This document shows, piece after piece, positions 5,760-63,595 of a stretch of 64,000 nucleotides of DNA (position 1 is its first letter; the number at the start of each line of letters is the position of its first letter). The stretch comes from Syntrophales bacterium (lineage in GTDB: Bacteria > Desulfobacterota > Syntrophia > Syntrophales > UBA2210), in contig CAXXKT010000001.1 in the NCBI GenBank assembly GCA_963662405.2, forward strand, positions 64,001-128,000. Direction: 5' to 3'. The notes beneath the pieces are model-generated. The model was not told where the DNA came from and ran no database searches. It saw nothing but the letters and a program-made list of their open reading frames with translations. The position numbers and the translations under genes are program-made.

Positions 5760-7486
5760 TACAGGTTCGTCCCTTTGAACTGCATATTGTGGAGCCTCGC
5801 ATACTCGCCTCCCTGCGCCATCAGGGTATCATGGTTCCCCTCCTCAACGATTTCCCCGTCAGCCAGGACAACGATCCGATCGGCATGACTGATCGTCGAG
5901 AGCCGATGGGCGATGACCAGGGTTGTTCTTCCTTTCATGAGGTTTTCAAGGGCCCCCTGTACCTCCATCTCCGATTCCGTATCGAGGGAAGACGTGGCTT
6001 CATCGAGGATCAGAATGGGTGCATCCTTCAAGAGTGCCCGCGCAATGGAAAGGCGTTGTTTTTCACCCCCCGATAGACGCGCTCCCTGCTCCCCGATGAT
6101 CGTATCGAATCCCTTCGGCAGGTTCCGGATAAACTGATAGGCATTGGCCGACCGGGCGGCCCGGATGATTTCCTCTTCACTCTTCCGTATATCGCCATAA
6201 GCAATATTGTTCCTGACCGTGTCATTGAACAGTATCGTCTGCTGTGTCACGATCCCGATCTGTCCTCGAAGCGACTCGATGGTCACATCCCGTATGTCAT
6301 GACCGTCGATCAGGATCCGCCCTTCGGTCACATCATAGAACCGCGGTATCAGATTCACCAGGGTCGTCTTTCCTCCCCCGCTCATACCGACAAAGGCCAC
6401 CACCTCACCGACCCTGACTTCAAGATTGATATTTTTGAGAACCGGTTCATCACCATAACTGAAGGTGACCTTTTTGATTTCGATCCCCCGTGAAATCCGC
6501 GACAGCGGCAGGGCATTCTCATCGTTACGTATCGTCGGCGTCATATCCATGATCGCGAACACCCTGGTGGTTGCGGCGATCCCCTTCTGGATCGTGTTGT
6601 TGACGTTGGTAAGCCTCTTGACCGGTTCATAGAGCATAATCAGGGCGGCGAGGAAGGAAAAGAAGGTGCCCGGCGTAGAGATACCGTTGATGACTTGATA
6701 TCCCCCGTAAAAGATGATCGCGGCGATTCCCAGGCCACCCAGAAATTCCATGAAGGGGGAGGACAGGGCCCGGATGGATACCGACTTCATATACAGTCTG
6801 AAAAGCTTTTCGTTCTCTTTTGAAAATCTCCTCCCCTCATATCCCTCCATCCCGAAGGCCTTGACGATCCGCGTCCCCGATATCGTCTCCTGCAGCAGAC
6901 TGGACAGGCTCCCCATGGTCACCTGGGTCCCGGTGGCCACCTTCCTCATTTTCTCACCGAATTTGGCGATGGGATAGATGGTCAGAGGAAAGACAAAGGC
7001 GGCAATGATAGCCAATTTCCAGTCACGATAGAAGATGACGAAGATGAGACCGATGAGCGTGAAGGAATCCTTGAAGAGACTCGATACGGCTTCCGAAACG
7101 GCCCCCTGGATCTGGTTCACATCGTTTGTGATGCGTGACATCAGTATCCCCGTCGGGTGCTTGCCGAAAAAGGAGAGGGCCTGCTTCTGGATGTGGTTGT
7201 ACAGGTCACTCCTCAAATCGGTGATGACCCGCTGGCCGATAAAGTTCATCAGGACCGTCTGCCCGTAGCTGCAGGCACCTTTGATAAAATACACGGCAAT
7301 GATGACGACCGGGATCCACTTCAGTTTGCTGCTATCTTTCGCGAGGAAGATCCCGTCCAGAGCGGGCTTGACCAGAAAGGCCAGTGCGGATGTCGTAGCT
7401 CCCACGGCGAGCATGCACACCATGGCACCGAGAAATTTCGGTATATGCGGCTTCGCCAGCCGTAAGATACGCTTGAATTCGTTCAT
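5759..7486 (-). CDS. msbA: Lipid A export ABC transporter MsbA
   Basis: TM domain plus GMSGGGKT, LSGGEKQR, ILDEAT; lipid A locus. Confidence 0.9.
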   Translation of the reverse strand: MNEFKRILRLAKPHIPKFLGAMVCMLAVGATTSALAFLVKPALDGIFLAKDSSKLKWIPVVIIAVYFIKGACSYGQTVLMNFIGQRVITDLRSDLYNHIQKQALSFFGKHPTGILMSRITNDVNQIQGAVSEAVSSLFKDSFTLIGLIFVIFYRDWKLAIIAAFVFPLTIYPIAKFGEKMRKVATGTQVTMGSLSSLLQETISGTRIVKAFGMEGYEGRRFSKENEKLFRLYMKSVSIRALSSPFMEFLGGLGIAAIIFYGGYQVINGISTPGTFFSFLAALIMLYEPVKRLTNVNNTIQKGIAATTRVFAIMDMTPTIRNDENALPLSRISRGIEIKKVTFSYGDEPVLKNINLEVRVGEVVAFVGMSGGGKTTLVNLIPRFYDVTEGRILIDGHDIRDVTIESLRGQIGIVTQQTILFNDTVRNNIAYGDIRKSEEEIIRAARSANAYQFIRNLPKGFDTIIGEQGARLSGGEKQRLSIARALLKDAPILILDEATSSLDTESEMEVQGALENLMKGRTTLVIAHRLSTISHADRIVVLADGEIVEEGNHDTLMAQGGEYARLHNMQFKGTNL

Positions 7487-7577
7487 ATCTGTTCTCTACT
7501 GATGGTCGTTCCGGTCGTCTGCATGGACCGTCCCGACGCTTTCTCCGACTTAGTGAAAGACGGCCCGGATACGCCGC

Positions 7578-7748
7578 TCATTCCAGCGGCCTTGCCTCCT
7601 CGACGAGCATGATGGGGATACCATCCCGGATCTCATAGAAAAGCCTGCACGCGTCACAGATCAGCCCCGTCTCGTCTCCCGCCAGGCGAATAGCCCCTTT
7701 ACACCGCGGGCAGACAAGGATATCCAATAATTCCTCATCCATCTTCAT
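7578..7748 (-). CDS. Trm112/YcaR-like small Zn-ribbon protein (56 aa, not in ORF track)
   Basis: MKMDEELLDILVCPRCKG...LICDACRLFYEIRDGIPIMLVEEARPLE. Confidence 0.85.
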   Translation of the reverse strand: MKMDEELLDILVCPRCKGAIRLAGDETGLICDACRLFYEIRDGIPIMLVEEARPLE

Positions 7749-7837
7749 TATCGATCCCTCCTGTTCGCACGGGAGTCTCCACGCACGTGGCCTCTATACC
7801 ACTCACCGTGTGCCATGTAAACCTCAACGCCCGATCC

Positions 7838-55190: not shown

Positions 55191-55267
<77 letters not shown>

Positions 55268-55276
55268 TTAAAATTA

Positions 55277-55309
55277 AGGGGTTAGCTACCATTGCTAGCC
55301 TCTTTTTTT
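55277..55309 (+). terminator. Terminator-like hairpin after the tRNA
   Basis: AGGGGTTAGC-TACCATT-GCTAGCCTCT followed by a T run. Confidence 0.55.
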
Positions 55310-56376
55310 ATGGTGAAATCGTGGACTGTGCCCGAAACTGTGCCCGTTTGGGTTTCCAGATAGGCCGCTTGCCTTTGTGAAGCCACAATCAAATCATCTT
55401 CGCTTACAATGTTATACCGTTCAAATATCGTTCGTGTCTTGTGCCCTGATATCATCATTGCCACCCGCTCCGGGATACCAGCCCGTACCATGTTTCTTAT
55501 GGCCGTGCGTCTGAAATCGTGAAACAATCTTGTTCCGATTTTTGCATCCTTGCAAGCGCTCTTCCAGGCCTTTCTTATATCGGTTATCTTTCCGCTCTTG
55601 TCACGGTTGGGGAAAACATAGGGCAAGATTGCTTCGCTCTTCTTCCTGTCTTCCTGTAGTTGCTTGAAAATCTCTTTCAATTCCGCGTCAAGATAGAAAA
55701 TCCGCGATTCATCGTTTTTCGTTTCCCCGGCATTCAGTCTTACAATCCCACCGTTCAAATCGACACGATCCCAAGTGAGACTGAAAATCTCTTCTTTTCT
55801 CCATCCTGATTTATAGGCGAACGTGACAAGTCCCTTTAGATATTCCGGCAATTGATCTTTCAAAGCCAGAAAGTCCCCGTGCTCAAAAAACCCTTGCCGC
55901 ACGTTGTTTTCTTTCAGCATAGGGATATATGGGACCCGGTCAACCTTGGGAGGGGTTTGCTTTGCCCCCAAGTTTAGCATACGTTTTAACGCTTTTAGTT
56001 CGTTGTTAATCGTTGCATTAGCCGCTTTATCTGCAAGGCGCTCTTCAATATATGCTTTGATCCTGGGTGTGGTTATCTGAGTAATCCGGACTCCTTCAAA
56101 GTGCTTCTTCAGGTGTTCAATGCTTATCTCTGCGCGCACAATAGACTTTCTATTGTTAATGCGATAATCGGTAAGCATTTCCTCTGCCAGCTCATCAAAT
56201 CGCACCTTGTCAAAGTACACCCCCGGAAGCTTCCCCTCTGAGATTTCACCTTCACGCTTTCTCAATAGCCTTTTCGCGTCCGCTTCTTTGTTGCTCCGGG
56301 TAGATTCACGGTAAGGCTTTCCGTTTCGATAGTACTTAATCCAGTAAACGTTTCCCCGTGTGTAAATCATTCCCAT
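55282..56376 (-). CDS. Phage-type tyrosine integrase
   Basis: SGWRKEE (R), TKN (K), FHDFRR, SGHKT, ERYN (Y); N-terminal arm-binding-like YWIKYY. Confidence 0.93.
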   Translation of the reverse strand: MGMIYTRGNVYWIKYYRNGKPYRESTRSNKEADAKRLLRKREGEISEGKLPGVYFDKVRFDELAEEMLTDYRINNRKSIVRAEISIEHLKKHFEGVRITQITTPRIKAYIEERLADKAANATINNELKALKRMLNLGAKQTPPKVDRVPYIPMLKENNVRQGFFEHGDFLALKDQLPEYLKGLVTFAYKSGWRKEEIFSLTWDRVDLNGGIVRLNAGETKNDESRIFYLDAELKEIFKQLQEDRKKSEAILPYVFPNRDKSGKITDIRKAWKSACKDAKIGTRLFHDFRRTAIRNMVRAGIPERVAMMISGHKTRTIFERYNIVSEDDLIVASQRQAAYLETQTGTVSGTVHDFTIKKEASNGS

Positions 56377-56811: not shown

Positions 56812-57648
56812 GTGACGATTGTGAAAAATCATAGTCTCCATAGTTTTTGTTGTCTTCTTACGTTTGCTCTCATCTTGGCTTTTTCGCCTAGTATCGGTGC
56901 TACTGATTACCCTGAGATTCATTGCAAGCATTTCATTTACGGTTACCCAACTGGCGCACCACTGAGCAATGACCTCATTATTCGTGATATCTACGCACTG
57001 TCGTCAAATGATGTGACCAAAATGGCGGACTGGGTCTGTTATCGTCTCGATAAAGAAACCGTCACCGGAGACGTGGGAACTTCCCGGAAGTGGAAGGCTG
57101 ATCCGTGGTTGGATGGGGGGGAGACGCTGGAGCCTCTGGATTATACCGGGGCACATGCTACCCTGCATGTAGACAGGGGGCATCAGGCTCCTTTGGCAAG
57201 CTTCAAAGGGACACCGCATTGGGCTGATACGAACATGCTTTCAAATATAACCCCTCAAAAGGCAAACCTCAACCAAGGGCCCTGGAAGAAGCTTGAAGAA
57301 AAAGTGCGTGACCTCGCGCGGGCTGGCAATGTCGTTTATGTGATGACGGGGCCGCTATACGAGCGAGAGATGACACCCCTACCCGGAGCGGATGAAAGCC
57401 ACAAGGTTCCGTCCGGCTACTGGAAGATTATCGTGATACAACCAGGAGAAGATATAGATTCCATCAAGACGGCGAGTTTCATTTTTGACCAAGAGACACC
57501 GAGAAATGATCCAGTAATCGATCATCTCTCTAAGATAAATGCCATTGAGACAAAGTCAGGGCTTGAATTTCTAAGAGCCCTTCCCGACGATAAGGAAGAA
57601 GAGATTGAAGGGTTGCTAAATAAAGATTGGGCCGAATCACGTTTTTGA
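56812..57648 (+). CDS. Secreted DNA/RNA non-specific endonuclease (NucA/EndoG family)
   Basis: Signal peptide; DRGHQAP, SNITPQ..LNQGPW..LE, VPSGYWK. Confidence 0.9.
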   Translation: MTIVKNHSLHSFCCLLTFALILAFSPSIGATDYPEIHCKHFIYGYPTGAPLSNDLIIRDIYALSSNDVTKMADWVCYRLDKETVTGDVGTSRKWKADPWLDGGETLEPLDYTGAHATLHVDRGHQAPLASFKGTPHWADTNMLSNITPQKANLNQGPWKKLEEKVRDLARAGNVVYVMTGPLYEREMTPLPGADESHKVPSGYWKIIVIQPGEDIDSIKTASFIFDQETPRNDPVIDHLSKINAIETKSGLEFLRALPDDKEEEIEGLLNKDWAESRF

Positions 57649-57804
57649 TGATCTGTTCACTACCAGTTAAACAGTCGGAAGCCCCAGGCTGAGGGGGGAA
57701 ACCCTGGAGTCCGGGGCTTCGTCAGAGGAATCGGGTCTAAGACGTATCAGGCAAACGACCCGATCAAATTTTACTCCTCTCACCCACGAAATCAAGGATT
57801 TTCT

Positions 57805-58041
57805 ATGCCCGATAAAACAGCCCATATGCTGCAGAAGACCTTGGGCGTCCTAGGCAAGCTGCAAAGCATGAAAGGTGAAGATTTCACGGAAGGAATGAAA
57901 GAGTATCTTCAGCTTGTGGATGAGTTCTATCAAGAGAACGAACATCTCATGGCTCGCCAACAATATAAAGCTGCACAAACAGATCCCGAGTACTTCTTGA
58001 GGCTCCTGGTATTAGCAGAGGCTATCCACAAGGATGAGTGA
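57805..58041 (+). CDS. Hypothetical protein (78 aa)
   Basis: ATG with upstream AAGGA; helical composition; no recognised motif. Confidence 0.5.
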   Translation: MPDKTAHMLQKTLGVLGKLQSMKGEDFTEGMKEYLQLVDEFYQENEHLMARQQYKAAQTDPEYFLRLLVLAEAIHKDE

Positions 58042-58263
58042 AAACGAAGATTGGTCCCTTCACCTACTACTCCTCAAAATAATTTCAGGAAAAAATTGAG
58101 TATTACTTATTGAAATCTTCAGCTTATATACTTCTTGACATAATATTTCGACGGAGCTAAACACATCGTACGTTCTTGGGTATATTAATTGTTAGCCATT
58201 CCCTTGTAAAATATGTATAAAACCAACAGCGGAAGATAGGCGAAACTGAGAGGAAACGCCACT

Positions 58264-59451
58264 ATGCCAAAGCAAGCTAATCAACTTCACAATCAAAACG
58301 AAGAGAAAGAAAAACGGGCGGCAGAGTTAGTCCTTGCCAACCAAGAGCTTGCCCATCAAAATAAATTGAAAGAAAAACGGGCAGCAGAGTTAGTCCTTGC
58401 CAATAAAGAGCTTGCCCATCAAAACGAAGAGAAAGAAAAACGAGCGGCAGAGTTAGTCCTTGCCAACGAAGAACTTTTCTACCAAAACGAAGAGAAAGAA
58501 AAACGGGCGGCAGAGTTAGTCCTTGCCAATAAAGCGCTTGCCCATCAAAACGAAGAGAAAGAAAAACGGGCGGCAGAGTTAGTCCTTGCCAACCAAGAGC
58601 TTGCCCATCAAAATAAATTGAAAGAAAAACGGGCAGCAGAGTTAGTCCTTGCCAATAAAGAGCTTGCCCATCAAAACGAAGAGAAAGAAAAACGAGCGGC
58701 AGAGTTAGTCCTTGCCAACGAAGAACTTTTCTACCAAAACGAAGAGAAAGAAAAACGGGCGGCAGAGTTAGTCCTTGCCAACCAAGAGCTTGCCCATCAA
58801 AATAAATTGAAAGAAAAACGGGCAATCGAACTCTCCAGCCTTTTGGGTGAATTAAAACACGCCAACGCACAACTGTTTGCGGCTTATGAATCCACCATTG
58901 AAGGCTGGTCACATGCGCTGGATTTGCGCGACAAAGAAACCGAAGGTCACACCCAACGCGTGACTGAAATGACATTGAAACTTGCACGCGTGGCGGGAGT
59001 TACCGAAGAAGAGTTGGTACACGTGCGGCGCGGAGCGCTTTTGCATGACATCGGCAAGATGGGAGTACCTGACCACATTCTTCTTAAGCCAGACAAACTG
59101 ACAGATGAAGAATGGGTTGTCATGCGTAAGCATCCCACTTTTGCCTATGAACTACTTTTGCCAATCGCTTATTTACGTAATGCGCTTGATATTCCTTATT
59201 GTCATCACGAAAAATGGGACGGGAGCGGTTATCCACGCAGGTTGAAAGGCGAGCAAATTCCATTTTCGGCGCGTCTCTTTGCGATAATAGATGTGTGGGA
59301 CGCTCTCCGCTCTTATCGTCCGTATCGACAAAGGTGGACAAAGGAGAAAGTAATTGAACATATCAAATCGCTTTCTGGAACGCACTTTGAGCCGAAGGTA
59401 GTGGAATTGTTTTTGAATATGGTGAATGAAGATGAAAAAAACACGGGCTAA
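58264..59451 (+). CDS. HD-GYP cyclic-dinucleotide phosphodiesterase with N-terminal 21-aa coiled-coil repeats
   Basis: LLHDIGK, HHEKWDGSGYP, DVWDAL..RPY. Confidence 0.92.
   Translation: MPKQANQLHNQNEEKEKRAAELVLANQELAHQNKLKEKRAAELVLANKELAHQNEEKEKRAAELVLANEELFYQNEEKEKRAAELVLANKALAHQNEEKEKRAAELVLANQELAHQNKLKEKRAAELVLANKELAHQNEEKEKRAAELVLANEELFYQNEEKEKRAAELVLANQELAHQNKLKEKRAIELSSLLGELKHANAQLFAAYESTIEGWSHALDLRDKETEGHTQRVTEMTLKLARVAGVTEEELVHVRRGALLHDIGKMGVPDHILLKPDKLTDEEWVVMRKHPTFAYELLLPIAYLRNALDIPYCHHEKWDGSGYPRRLKGEQIPFSARLFAIIDVWDALRSYRPYRQRWTKEKVIEHIKSLSGTHFEPKVVELFLNMVNEDEKNTG
58291..58824 (+). repeat. About 8.5 tandem 63-bp coding repeats (xQNEEKEKRAAELVLANxELA)
   Basis: Directly visible; unit variants recur with a 4-unit (252-bp) period. 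Confidence 0.95.
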
Positions 59452-59502
59452 CAAACGGATGGAGCCGACTCCTTACAGTCGCGGCTTATCCACTCGTTAC
59501 CA
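59446..59502 (+). other. attC-like recombination site (57 bp)
   Basis: GGCTAAC-AAAC-GGATGGAGCCGACT-CCTTAC-AGTCGCGGCTTATCC-ACTC-GTTACCA imperfect palindrome; gene stop TAA lies inside the inverse core. Confidence 0.7.
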
Positions 59503-59798
59503 ATTGTAGTCTACGATGAACAGGCCGATTCAAGTTTTGTTTGTTTCAGGAAGAAAATTTCAGCATAAATCAATTGATTCGGAATATAGTGTATTTGCCA
59601 ACTTCCGGTTAGGCTCCCTACCGCCCGTAGACGGGCACCCTGTTTCATCCCTCCGTTACCGGATTTGTTGTCTTGAGTGACTTATCCCCTCTTCCGGTGA
59701 GAGATTAGCACACCGCCCTTTCGGGTATTCAATTTTCAACGATCAAATACGTCCACCTATACAAACATACCAACCTCAAAAAAACATGCCTTGGGGAA

Positions 59799-59835: not shown

Positions 59836-60060
59836 TCAGTTGTCGGACTCTTGACCCCTTTGATACCTTCCCCAAAGGTACGCAATCACATCACCCTCAA
59901 AGAAATATCTCCGGCCTGATTTTTCGACATACTTCAGGCCCCCACGTATCCAGTTTGACAACTGTCTGCTACGCCCGGACCCGGTAACGGGTAAGTCTAA
60001 CCTCACGGCCAGGTCTTTTTCGCTCCAAACTTCGTTTATTGTCTTTGGCATCTCTGTCAT
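59836..60060 (-). CDS. Small winged-HTH protein (Xis/MerR/Nu1-like)
   Basis: SEKDLAVRL...RQLSNWIRGGLKYVEKSGRRYFFEGDVIAYL; GGAGG RBS. Confidence 0.65.
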   Translation of the reverse strand: MTEMPKTINEVWSEKDLAVRLDLPVTGSGRSRQLSNWIRGGLKYVEKSGRRYFFEGDVIAYLWGRYQRGQESDN

Positions 60061-61002: not shown

Positions 61003-61245
61003 TCAATCAATCACCCGCTTGTTTTCTTCGATGAATCTTTCAATGTCCTGGGTGTCTATGTACTGTTTCCGTCCGCCGGGGAATTGAACAACCGGGATTA
61101 GCCCTTGCCATATCCTTTCCCTCATTGCCCAGGTGGTTAGCCCAAGGCATTCCGCCGCCTGTTTTAACGGTAAGAGACGGGGGGACTGTGGATTTGAAAT
61201 CCCCTGTTCCGGTTTCTTCTCTATTATTCCGCTACGTTCCGCCAT
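61003..61245 (-). CDS. Excisionase-like HTH protein
   Basis: RLLPLKQAAECLGLTTWAMRERIWQGLIPVVQFPGGRKQYIDTQDIERFIEEN. Confidence 0.8.
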   Translation of the reverse strand: MAERSGIIEKKPEQGISNPQSPRLLPLKQAAECLGLTTWAMRERIWQGLIPVVQFPGGRKQYIDTQDIERFIEENKRVID

Positions 61246-61594: not shown

Positions 61595-62061
61595 TTACTT
61601 TTATTTTGTGCATGTGGCTTTTCACGTCATGTCCACGTGGGAGAGACCGCTTCTTTTCGACTTTTTTAAATTTCTCTGTTCCGTAATCTCTCCATCGTTC
61701 CGATATTGCATACATGGAATAATCATGGCCAAAGGTCCCTCCCTGGTGCTCGATCTCCACGAAGCCAACCTCAACAAGTTTCTTGATTGCCTCGTAAAAG
61801 GCTGTGGTCTTGATACCGAGCGCAGCCGCTTCAGCATAAGGAAATACGATATTATGGTTCTCATAGATTCTTTTTGAGCGTCCCCCTTGCTTGATGTTTG
61901 ACCAAGTCCTTTTTTGCAGTAACCTCAGCAAAACCCGGATAGCGGAAGCATTCAATTCCTTAAATGCCTGAGAAGCTAAGATTTCCCATTGGTCTTCCCC
62001 CGATTTAGTGGACATACCGAAGAGTTTCTCTTATAGACATAGAGTAACGAGGAGGCATGTC

Positions 62062-62364
62062 ATGGTTAATGGGAAGGATAAGCGGTATTTTGATCGGGAG
62101 TTTAAGTATGAGGCGATTCGGTTAATGGATGAAGGTAAACGTTCTGTAAGTGATCTAGCTAAGGATTTGAATGTTCATAAAAACCTGCTTCATCAGTGGA
62201 GGCGTAAATATCGGGCGGACATGGAGCAAGCTTTTCCCGGGAAAGGTCATTTGAAGGCACCTGAGGAGGAACTTCGTCGGTTGCGGCGGGAGAATGAGAG
62301 CTTAAGGGAGGAGAGGGAAATCTTAAAAAAAGCGTTGGCCATCTTCTCGAAACACCCAAAGTAA
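62062..62364 (+). CDS. IS3 OrfA
   Basis: FDREFKYEAIRL HTH; ELRRLRRENESLREEREILKKA zipper. Confidence 0.9.
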   Translation: MVNGKDKRYFDREFKYEAIRLMDEGKRSVSDLAKDLNVHKNLLHQWRRKYRADMEQAFPGKGHLKAPEEELRRLRRENESLREEREILKKALAIFSKHPK

Positions 62365-63224
62365 AGTATGAGTTCATGGAAAATCACCGTTCCGAATTTT
62401 CGGTGAAGAAGATGTGCCGAGTGCTGGGGGTATCCAGGAGCGGTTATTACATATGGGGGAAACACAGCAAGAGTGACCGCCAGAGAGAGAATGAGCGGTT
62501 GCTGATGTATATTCGGGACGCTTTCATAAAGGGTCGCGGCACATATGGTAGCCCGAGGGTGACAGCGGAACTTCAGGCCCACGGGATTAAGTGTAGCAGG
62601 AAACGAGTGGCTCACCTGATGAAGAGTCATGGGATTAAGGCAAAGACGAAACGCAGGTTCAAGGCCACCAAAAAATCCAAGCATGAGTTTTTAGTGGCGG
62701 ATAATCTTTTAAATCGGAGATTTTCGACAGATGTGGCCAACAAGGTGTGGGTTTCTGATATTACCCTTATTTGGACGAGAGAGGGTTGGCTTTATCTGGC
62801 AGCGATCCTGGATGTTTTCAATCGTAAGATTATTGGATGGTCGATGGATAACAGATTGAGTCATAAGATTCTTGCAGATGCCTTGCACAAGGCGATCAGG
62901 CAGCGGCGACCCAAAGCTGGTGTTATGTTTCATTCAGATCGTGGAACTCAATATACCAGCTATGCTTTTCAGGGGCTGATGGAGAAATATGGTTTTATTC
63001 AGAGCATGAACTCTTCGGGGAATTGTTACGACAATGCTCTTATGGAATCGTTTTTCCATACCTTAAAGACGGAGCTTGTTTATTTTGAGAAGTATCAGAC
63101 AAGACAGGAAGCTCGCGGGAGCATATTCGAATATATCGAAGTTTTCTATAATTGCGTTAGAAGACATTCATCATTGAATTATTGCTCTCCCGCTGAGTTT
63201 GAACGAAAAGCGTGTGTAACTTAG
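62325..63224 (+). CDS. IS3 OrfB DDE transposase (joined to OrfA by -1 frameshift at A7G, 62325-62332)
   Basis: WVSDIT, HSDRGTQY, DNALMESFF; the -1 frame is open from the slippery site. Confidence 0.9.
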   Translation, partial: KKSVGHLLETPKVKYEFMENHRSEFSVKKMCRVLGVSRSGYYIWGKHSKSDRQRENERLLMYIRDAFIKGRGTYGSPRVTAELQAHGIKCSRKRVAHLMKSHGIKAKTKRRFKATKKSKHEFLVADNLLNRRFSTDVANKVWVSDITLIWTREGWLYLAAILDVFNRKIIGWSMDNRLSHKILADALHKAIRQRRPKAGVMFHSDRGTQYTSYAFQGLMEKYGFIQSMNSSGNCYDNALMESFFHTLKTELVYFEKYQTRQEARGSIFEYIEVFYNCVRRHSSLNYCSPAEFERKACVT

Positions 63225-63595
63225 TGGGGTGTCCACTTTTTCGGGGCAAGATCACATGATATGTATACGTTACGTCTAAGCTGGTATTTGTGTTGTTTCC
63301 CTCTCATTAAGCGCCTCCTGGAGCGCGTACCCTGGTTATATGATTCCGGGGAAGGTGGAGGCCAGGACTCCCCACTCTTCGGATACAATCCTATCCCCGG
63401 AAAGCGTTATTTGTTGTAGCTGTGCCATGTGTGTTCTTTTCATTAGACCCCTTTTTGTTTACCTCCCTGCCTCATTTAATCGCAGGTGGGAACATCAAAA
63501 ATAAAAAAGCCATGAATGACCCGGTTTAAGGGCCTCTCATGGCTTGCTTGCTTTGCAAGTTTTTGTTGCTTGCTTTTAGGCTGGCTTGCCTTTAT

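Follow-up and report, generated by a model that had tools for sequence, protein, structure and literature searches.

How a gene cassette of the integron type came to stand alone on a chromosomal island that carries no integron integrase (IntI) is the question raised by one locus of a Syntrophales bacterium (GenBank assembly GCA_963662405.2). The window analysed is a stretch of 64,000 nucleotides (nt), positions 64,001 to 128,000 of contig CAXXKT010000001.1 (C1 below), and coordinates given without a contig name are window positions. The interval 58192-59496 on the + strand is a genuine integron gene cassette of 1305 bp, delimited by two crossover points and made up of a promoterless gene for an HD-GYP-domain protein and its own recombination site, attC. 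With a probability of about 0.65, this cassette arrived as a circle that was inserted by IntI at a G-TT site that is not an attI, beyond a promoter already resident on the island.

The attC occupies 57 nt (59446-59502, +), with the crossover between G59496 and T59497. It consists of R'' (59446-59452), a spacer (59453-59456), the L'' arm (59457-59467) with an extrahelical base at 59461, a loop region (59468-59481), the L' arm (59482-59491), a second spacer (59492-59495) and R' (59496-59502). Ten attC sites were chosen by eye from the two integron arrays resident in the genome, and five of them were used to build a covariance model (R1) with a hand-given structure comprising the R-box core, the L boxes and one extrahelical column; the window candidate was left out. 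Searched against the window plus both arrays (104 kb), R1 gave 14 matches at E <= 10, namely the five training sites, eight new sites that all fell within the two arrays and on the strand of the array, and a sole match in the window, exactly at 59446-59502 (+), with 21.6 bits and an E-value of 0.019. A second model (R2), trained on 12 array sites and searched without filters, gave the candidate 24.0 bits (E 0.0052); each of the 11 modelled pairs is standard, and the extrahelical column is occupied by the base at 59461. The next-best site in the 64-kb window reached 10.6 bits, and the candidate was alone above 11 bits. E-values from both models are rough, and 476 kb of unrelated DNA served as the empirical check. 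The geometry resembles that of resident sites, with 4-nt spacers, extra bases on the '' arm and a length of 57 nt as in site A3. The consensus of attC sites is RYYYAAC for R'' and GTTRRRY for R', and the invariant AAC and GTT cores are present in the R'' and R' of the candidate. Two MAFFT alignments of attC sites (A1 and A2) were set aside because they misaligned the R boxes.

Folded as DNA, 59446-59502 has an energy of -7.6 kcal/mol on the top strand (z -1.41) and -9.7 kcal/mol on the bottom strand (z -2.46), and 5 of 200 shuffles were at least as stable as the bottom-strand fold, which has one unpaired base on its 5' arm versus two on its 3' arm, as in resident site A16. Fold energy was rejected as a discriminator of attC sites, 174 AAC...GTT candidates in 60 kb reaching an equal energy density.

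The 5' junction is the heptamer GTTAGCC (58191-58197, +), with the crossover between G58191 and T58192. As IntI crosses over between G and TT, the preceding G and the first six bases of a cassette should complement the R'' of that same cassette, and GTTAGCC is the exact complement, at seven of seven positions, of the R'' GGCTAAC (59446-59452), inside which falls the TAA stop codon (59449-59451) of the open reading frame (ORF) 58264-59451. In the resident arrays the complement rule holds 7/7 in five of 16 consecutive pairs of model hits, these being the truly adjacent pairs; among the remaining 11 are four whose first site has GTTCAGG at its end, which complements the R'' of an unmodelled repeat cassette of ~145 nt lying after it. 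When the 222-nt intergenic region was shuffled 20000 times, GTTAGCC came up in 158 of the shuffles (0.8%), and the joint chance of the heptamer and the attC model match is roughly 4e-5 to 1e-3. When the two ends of the cassette were joined in silico, all seven R-box pairs could form and the energy dropped to -13.1 kcal/mol, and the joined flanks read G-TT at the crossover. The single ORF reads toward the attC, and a sigma-70 scan found no promoter-like site on the + strand within 58192-58263. No second cassette was detected downstream of the attC, where there is no TGGTAAC and a lone GGTAAC at 59983 is without a fold (-2.8 kcal/mol). A sequence-only reading of the window had drawn attention to GTTAGCC at 58191 and to its complement GGCTAAC at 59446 holding the stop codon of the HD-GYP gene, all of which are present, and to a 57-bp imperfect palindrome ending in GTT(ACCA), which is borne out by 59446-59502 ending in GTTACCA and folding as an imperfect hairpin. 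The fully paired core that it expected on circularising 58192-59496 was recovered in silico, its two crossover points are upheld by the 7/7 complement rule, and its call of a real integron attC agrees with the 21.6 and 24.0 bits given by R1 and R2, the candidate having been excluded from training.

A source of integrase is present elsewhere in the genome. An intact intI (C1:2211885-2212937) scored 471 bits against a cut-off of 265 for TIGR02249 and lies on the same contig, 2.09 Mb from the cassette; a second intI (C1:30602-31643), split by a TAA stop, is 91 kb from the cassette and is the nearest TIGR02249 match over the cut-off. They belong to two chromosomal integrons, L009 (C1:2211885-2230700) and L010 (C1:31643-15000, -), in both of which intI is on the strand of the cassettes and precedes an array whose attC sites can be recognised; the window cassette lies outside both. 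IntI is available in trans because the genome has these two integrons, one of them with an intact IntI. The integrase of the island itself (55282-56376, -) is a tyrosine integrase of phage type (Pfam Phage_integrase 1.9e-22; phrog_1 integrase 1.1e-52), had no TIGR02249 match at E <= 1e-5 in NCBIfam and, judged by these profiles, is not an integron integrase. In the favoured route the integron integrase would act in trans, from the intact copy or the broken one, and the folded bottom strand of the attC on the circular cassette would recombine with a double-stranded non-attI G-TT site, which makes the reaction of the attC x attG type, that is, an insertion at a secondary site. The resident truncated promoter ~22 nt upstream would then drive the inserted gene.

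The left flank of the cassette carries a truncated promoter/leader module (58061-58168, +) that covers profile positions 1-107 of 237 (nhmmer 33.6 bits, E 4.5e-8). It contains TTGACA (58135-58140), a 17-nt spacing and TAAACA (58158-58163), while the leader and terminator part is missing; no leader homology was found in 58150-58330, which includes the 5' untranslated region of the cassette compared with the leader of the module. The junction lies ~22 nt past the truncated module, and these 22 nt match nothing else in the genome. TTGACA-N17-TAAACA is absent from the list of the sigma-70 scan because TAAACA is without the final T that the scan requires, and the overlapping TAAACA-N17-TATATT (58158-58186, +) is listed in its place; this second promoter-like site is a consensus match only, and a start from it would be near the cassette junction. 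BLAST found seven genome copies of the upstream part of the module, and a profile of the full unit of ~230 nt (a promoter and a leader ending in an intrinsic terminator) gave 68 genome matches, 21 of them near full length. Copies that retain the promoter only precede unrelated sequences, and no common sequence was found after the -10 element among them. Full copies occur, for example, at C1:158551-158320(-), C1:245660-245891, C2:288381-288147(-) and C1:1938755-1938973. The transcribed part comprises a hairpin and the intrinsic terminator, with compensatory changes in 5 of 29 consensus pairs, and the module is present also in other genera of the family (genomes G016 and G014). A small RNA and an attenuating leader are both conceivable roles for it.

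The left flank is not an attI. On an attI weight matrix the junction scored 0.27 bits and ranked 38 of 799 GTT sites, versus 24.6-30.4 bits for resident attI sites, four of the five scored sites being the training set of the matrix, and a gapped attI profile gave no match at the 5' junction. A first impression of an attI-like 5' junction was ruled out by the matrix and the gapped profile together, and the attI-like landing pad of the sequence-only reading is not supported; its alternative wording, a secondary GTT-like site, fits the junction. The Pc-like promoter that it had proposed exists as TTGACA-N17-TAAACA, but it is not specific to integrons, being part of a cut-off copy of the repeat with 68 matches. 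The intI and attC sites for which it suggested searching the genome are present in the two integrons with attC arrays and the intact IntI described above (471 against 265 bits), and its view that the element has no IntI of its own is in line with a nearest intI that is broken and 91 kb away and with an island integrase of phage type.

On the right, the cassette abuts a conserved element of ~60 nt, here called E (59496-59556, +), of which there are four strong genome copies: the window copy, C1:2673042-2673099, C3:389172-389105(-) and C2:405837-405772(-). Three of the four begin 0, 4 or 7 nt past the GTT of an attC, these being the copies in the window, at C3:389225-389166 and in locus L011 (C1:2662001-2682000), where an IS3-family insertion sequence (IS) stands between. 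Beyond E, L011 continues with a second module, then an attI and another array. By its positions E behaves like a distal flank of cassette arrays, and it could represent either the sequence that natively borders an attI on the right or one favoured as a target; an attI joined directly to E was found at none of 15 attI matches.

A profile of the attI, ~40-60 nt long, gave 13 genome matches at E < 1e-3, two adjoining intI and seven directly following a module, and the module-attI loci then carry cassettes and attC matches. The matches include C1:2214334-2214393, C1:30489-30431(-), C1:2673515-2673573, C2:288013-287955(-), C1:158322-158267(-), C1:245893-245950, C2:54150-54201, C1:236365-236425, C1:1947629-1947688 and C1:131281-131249(-), among others. 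At the platform C1:1947380 the attI junction complements the attC R'' at seven of seven positions. Where the alignment includes the crossover, attI matches are conserved up to GTT and diverge completely beyond it. In a genome-wide search with R2, in which 150 of 640 first-look candidates were scored, 19 of the 20 matches listed sit in arrays headed by intI or attI. Several further features of these arrays were recorded. The first integron has an IS-like ORF pair between intI and attI. The cassette of ~145 nt has no ORF, has a 109-nt attC-like palindrome (-44 kcal/mol, R'' CCTGAAC), is repeated many times over in both arrays and also directly follows two attI sites; examples are C1:2214394-2214533, 2216453-2216600, 2218682-2218825 and 2222056-2222200, and C2:287954 downward. 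L011 holds two tandem cassette arrays behind a phage-type integrase (L011:4862-5983), the first ending in attC, the IS3 insertion and E, the second starting with the module, a spacer like that of the second integron and attI; the majority of its cassette ORFs have no Pfam match.

Relatives of the catalytic half of the HD-GYP protein occur at 62-80% identity in many phyla. Among the best 80 HD-GYP homologue loci none has an attC-model match after the gene, and in the seven best loci, which were inspected, similarity stops at the C-terminus. The sequence-only reading had named unbroken similarity around HD-GYP homologues, together with the lack of an attC model hit, as what would speak against it; this did not come about, for similarity ends at the C-terminus in the seven loci, and 0/80 have an attC-model match. 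In none of 40 related genomes did the cassette DNA match beyond the level of the domain or of the attC only. G036, a genome of another family, has a sister attC behind a different gene, with an 83% match over 46 nt and a score of 24.0 bits. This attC forms part of a cluster (L038, G036:C1:289001-302000, positions 6343-7817, -) together with two more attC matches on the same strand. No IntI was found in G036 or G040 at E <= 1e-30, and on the evidence of this search the G036 attC cluster is integrase-less. A sister tRNA-Arg island in G003 has different cargo and no attC match above 10.3 bits. Contigs from four public sequencing runs bridge both junctions in the occupied form only, with no joint of 58191 to 59497; run X3 gave one contig of 165 nt and X5 none, and the public-run assemblies break inside the 63-nt tandem repeat of the cargo gene. 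The related islands with an empty site that the sequence-only reading had proposed to look for did not turn up in the 40 relatives or on the G003 island.

Several observations weigh against insertion by IntI at a non-attI site as set out above. No empty site was found in the 40 relatives, the G003 island or the public-run contigs. The unrelated DNA yielded one model match above 20 bits, at 23.3 bits, and for this reason an isolated match of 24 bits is weak without the junction rule; the window candidate is, moreover, not among the 20 matches listed in the genome-wide R2 search. R'' and R' are each one position off the strict consensus, GGCTAAC having G for Y and GTTAGCC and GTTACCA each having C for R, and resident sites deviate similarly (e.g. 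CGCTAAC and GTTAGCG). TAAACA fits the -10 consensus at only three of six positions. The order of parts, with module, cassette, attC and E in succession, is that of integrase-less attI platforms and fits descent from such a platform equally, and plain insertion is not the whole story, because the module is cut off exactly here.

Descent from a platform would mean that the cassette entered a true attI, whose left arm was afterwards lost together with the leader by deletion or rearrangement, leaving ~22 nt of unrelated sequence. This history, the main rival, is possible, if rather unlikely. The same order of parts is seen at C1:1947380, with its 7/7 junction, in L011 and on C3; on C3 and in L011 E comes behind the final attC of an array, as in the window; the module breaks off at profile position 107; and 7 of the 13 attI profile matches come directly after a module. 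Against it stand the lack of any attI trace at the junction, the lack of any attI joined directly to E, and the promoter-only modules that front unrelated sequences elsewhere, so that truncation need not imply a lost attI. A fresh insertion and a decayed platform are not separated, because no empty site was found.

It is quite improbable that the flanks came along without IntI acting here, through homologous recombination between repeats (the module and E) or through an IS3-mediated rearrangement of an array fragment. Such repeats are at hand, with 68 profile matches of the module and four strong copies of E, and 2.5 kb downstream there is an IS3 of which an identical copy sits inside another array, but the 5' junction is base-exact by the cassette rule, the 22 nt to its left are unique in the genome, and an array fragment should have brought a preceding attC or attI, of which none is detectable. 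It is very improbable that the locus is no cassette but an ordinary HD-GYP gene that has, by coincidence, a hairpin behind its stop codon and the heptamer ahead of it, since the unremarkable fold energy, the one 23.3-bit match in 476 kb of unrelated DNA and the R boxes off the strict consensus are set against a model match with exactly the predicted ends, on the right strand and overlapping the stop codon, a 7/7 heptamer with a chance of 0.8%, a sister attC within the attC cluster of another genome, the placement of 19 of the 20 listed genome matches in arrays headed by intI or attI, and the joint chance of roughly 4e-5 to 1e-3. Insertion of the circular cassette by IntI at the G-TT site is the reading with the best support.

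The cargo is an HD-GYP-domain protein of 395 amino acids (aa) encoded at 58264-59451 (+; Pfam HD_5, E 7.2e-34), with the HD motif at residue 261 and HHE...GYP at residues 314-324. Its N-terminal half consists of eight coiled-coil-like 21-aa repeats of the EKEKRAAELVLAN type, encoded by a DNA tandem repeat (58292-58823) with a period of 63 nt and 8.4 copies, and the protein has no sensor domain. The 63-nt repeat has a higher-order period of 252 nt; units 1-4 share ~98% identity with units 5-8, a sign that the repeat tract was duplicated internally not long ago. The cargo falls outside the NF053512 family because its 155 bits are below the cut-off of 400, and neither it nor its neighbours had a match in the PADLOC defence library. 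From its domain content the product is probably a phosphodiesterase of cyclic di-GMP (c-di-GMP) that is made constitutively and is sensor-less, and the gene is probably transcribed from the resident promoter, there being no terminator between. A weaker reading is that the island retains the enzyme for breaking down some cyclic-nucleotide signal of its host, such as one used in defence, and not for housekeeping turnover of c-di-GMP.

The island is ~9.3 kb long and is integrated at a tRNA-Arg gene with anticodon CCG (55191-55267, +); a repeat of the tRNA 3' end at C1:128518-128581, equal to window coordinate 64518-64581 and ~520 bp beyond the window end, marks its other end. Besides the phage-type integrase, its genes include one for a small repressor-like protein and one for an excisionase-like helix-turn-helix protein (61003-61245, -; Pfam HTH_17; phrog_66 2.5e-8). 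Upstream of the cassette (56812-58041, +) lie a DNA/RNA non-specific endonuclease gene (56812-57648) and an ORF of 78 aa (57805-58041). Two paralogous copies of this pair exist elsewhere in the genome, and behind each stands a promoter/leader module that retains its leader. The three loci are 80-87% identical (window 56851-58041; C1:1937558-1938739; C1:300894-299486, -), and in all three a module comes after. The pair may be a nuclease and its inhibitor carried on related islands. The IS3-family element of the island (61989-63254, +), 2.5 kb downstream of the cassette, is 100% identical over 1266 bp to the copy at C1:2671777-2673042, which interrupts another cassette array, and this identity suggests recent transposition. 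Rfam found only two tRNAs in the window and had no match in five module-bearing loci. The GC content of the cassette is 45.6%, and composition gives no signal of its origin because this value resembles island and resident arrays alike.

Surveys of thousands of genomes have tallied isolated cassettes, and a reaction able to make them has been shown in the laboratory. The value of this locus is that both junctions, a resident promoter, an available integrase and a mobile carrier can all be read from one genome, which provides a concrete natural example outside the clinical integron classes, with cargo that is concerned with signalling and not with resistance, on an island that could move the cassette onward. 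That the island serves as a cassette vehicle is plausible. Locally, the locus is of interest in that the same genome holds many integrase-less landing sites. A broader proposal, which is offered tentatively and with considerable doubt, is that of a distributed integron, in which over a dozen landing sites without an integrase, on the chromosome and on islands and fronted by a shared promoter/leader repeat, would depend on a single IntI, which would drop cassettes also at non-attI sites beside bare promoter copies, while small tRNA-integrating islands would carry expressed cassettes between cells without moving any integron.

Recchia and Hall are said to have described, in 1995, an aadB cassette inserted at a secondary site in a derivative of RSF1010. 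The present locus is like that reported case in that a single cassette has gone in precisely at a GTT-type site away from any integron, in the probable use of a promoter of the carrier and in the mobility of the carrier, and differs in that a resistance cassette on a plasmid of clinical bacteria is replaced by a signalling gene on a chromosomal tRNA island. As a protein, the cargo is like HD-GYP c-di-GMP phosphodiesterases (Pfam HD_5; NCBIfam NF053512, NosR-family response-regulator phosphodiesterase) in having intact HD and GYP motifs, and unlike them in having no receiver, PAS or GAF input domain, only the eight coiled-coil-like 21-aa repeats. Within the genome itself, the locus shares with the clusters of attC sites lacking an integrase (CALIN) and with the integrase-less attI platforms the same attC family, the upstream module, the downstream E and the dependence on an IntI elsewhere; those platforms keep a conserved attI of ~40 nt and usually a leader of ~130 nt with a terminator, whereas the window has neither and holds a single cassette.

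The closest known kind is the single attC lacking an integrase (SALIN) made by attC x attG insertion, of which this locus is a further example. In its general form the likeness to a SALIN is direct, with one coding sequence and one attC, no intI, attI or other attC nearby, and an IntI elsewhere in the genome. In the IntegronFinder 2.0 paper (PMC9024848), elements with a single attC are described as possible true positives that are nevertheless filtered by default. The present locus shows that attC models trained on a genome's own arrays can validate a single attC that generic pipelines discard in this way. Loot et al. (bioRxiv 10.1101/2022.09.11.507474) describe how IntI drives insertion at 5'-GWT-3' sites in the genome and report that inserted cassettes are expressed from resident promoters close by and can be excised again, the attG site having been defined with IntI1-3 in E. 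coli and V. cholerae. Set against that description, the window site is like attG insertions in its G-W-T crossover in ordinary double-stranded DNA and in a gene oriented from a nearby resident promoter. It departs from the attG hot spots of E. coli, as characterised there, in that the right-hand CRGM motif is absent (AATT at positions 6-9), and from the attG systems and cases so described in that the IntI of the genome is distant and comes from integrons with intI and cassettes on one strand, and in that the target lies on an integrative island, beside a repeat element.

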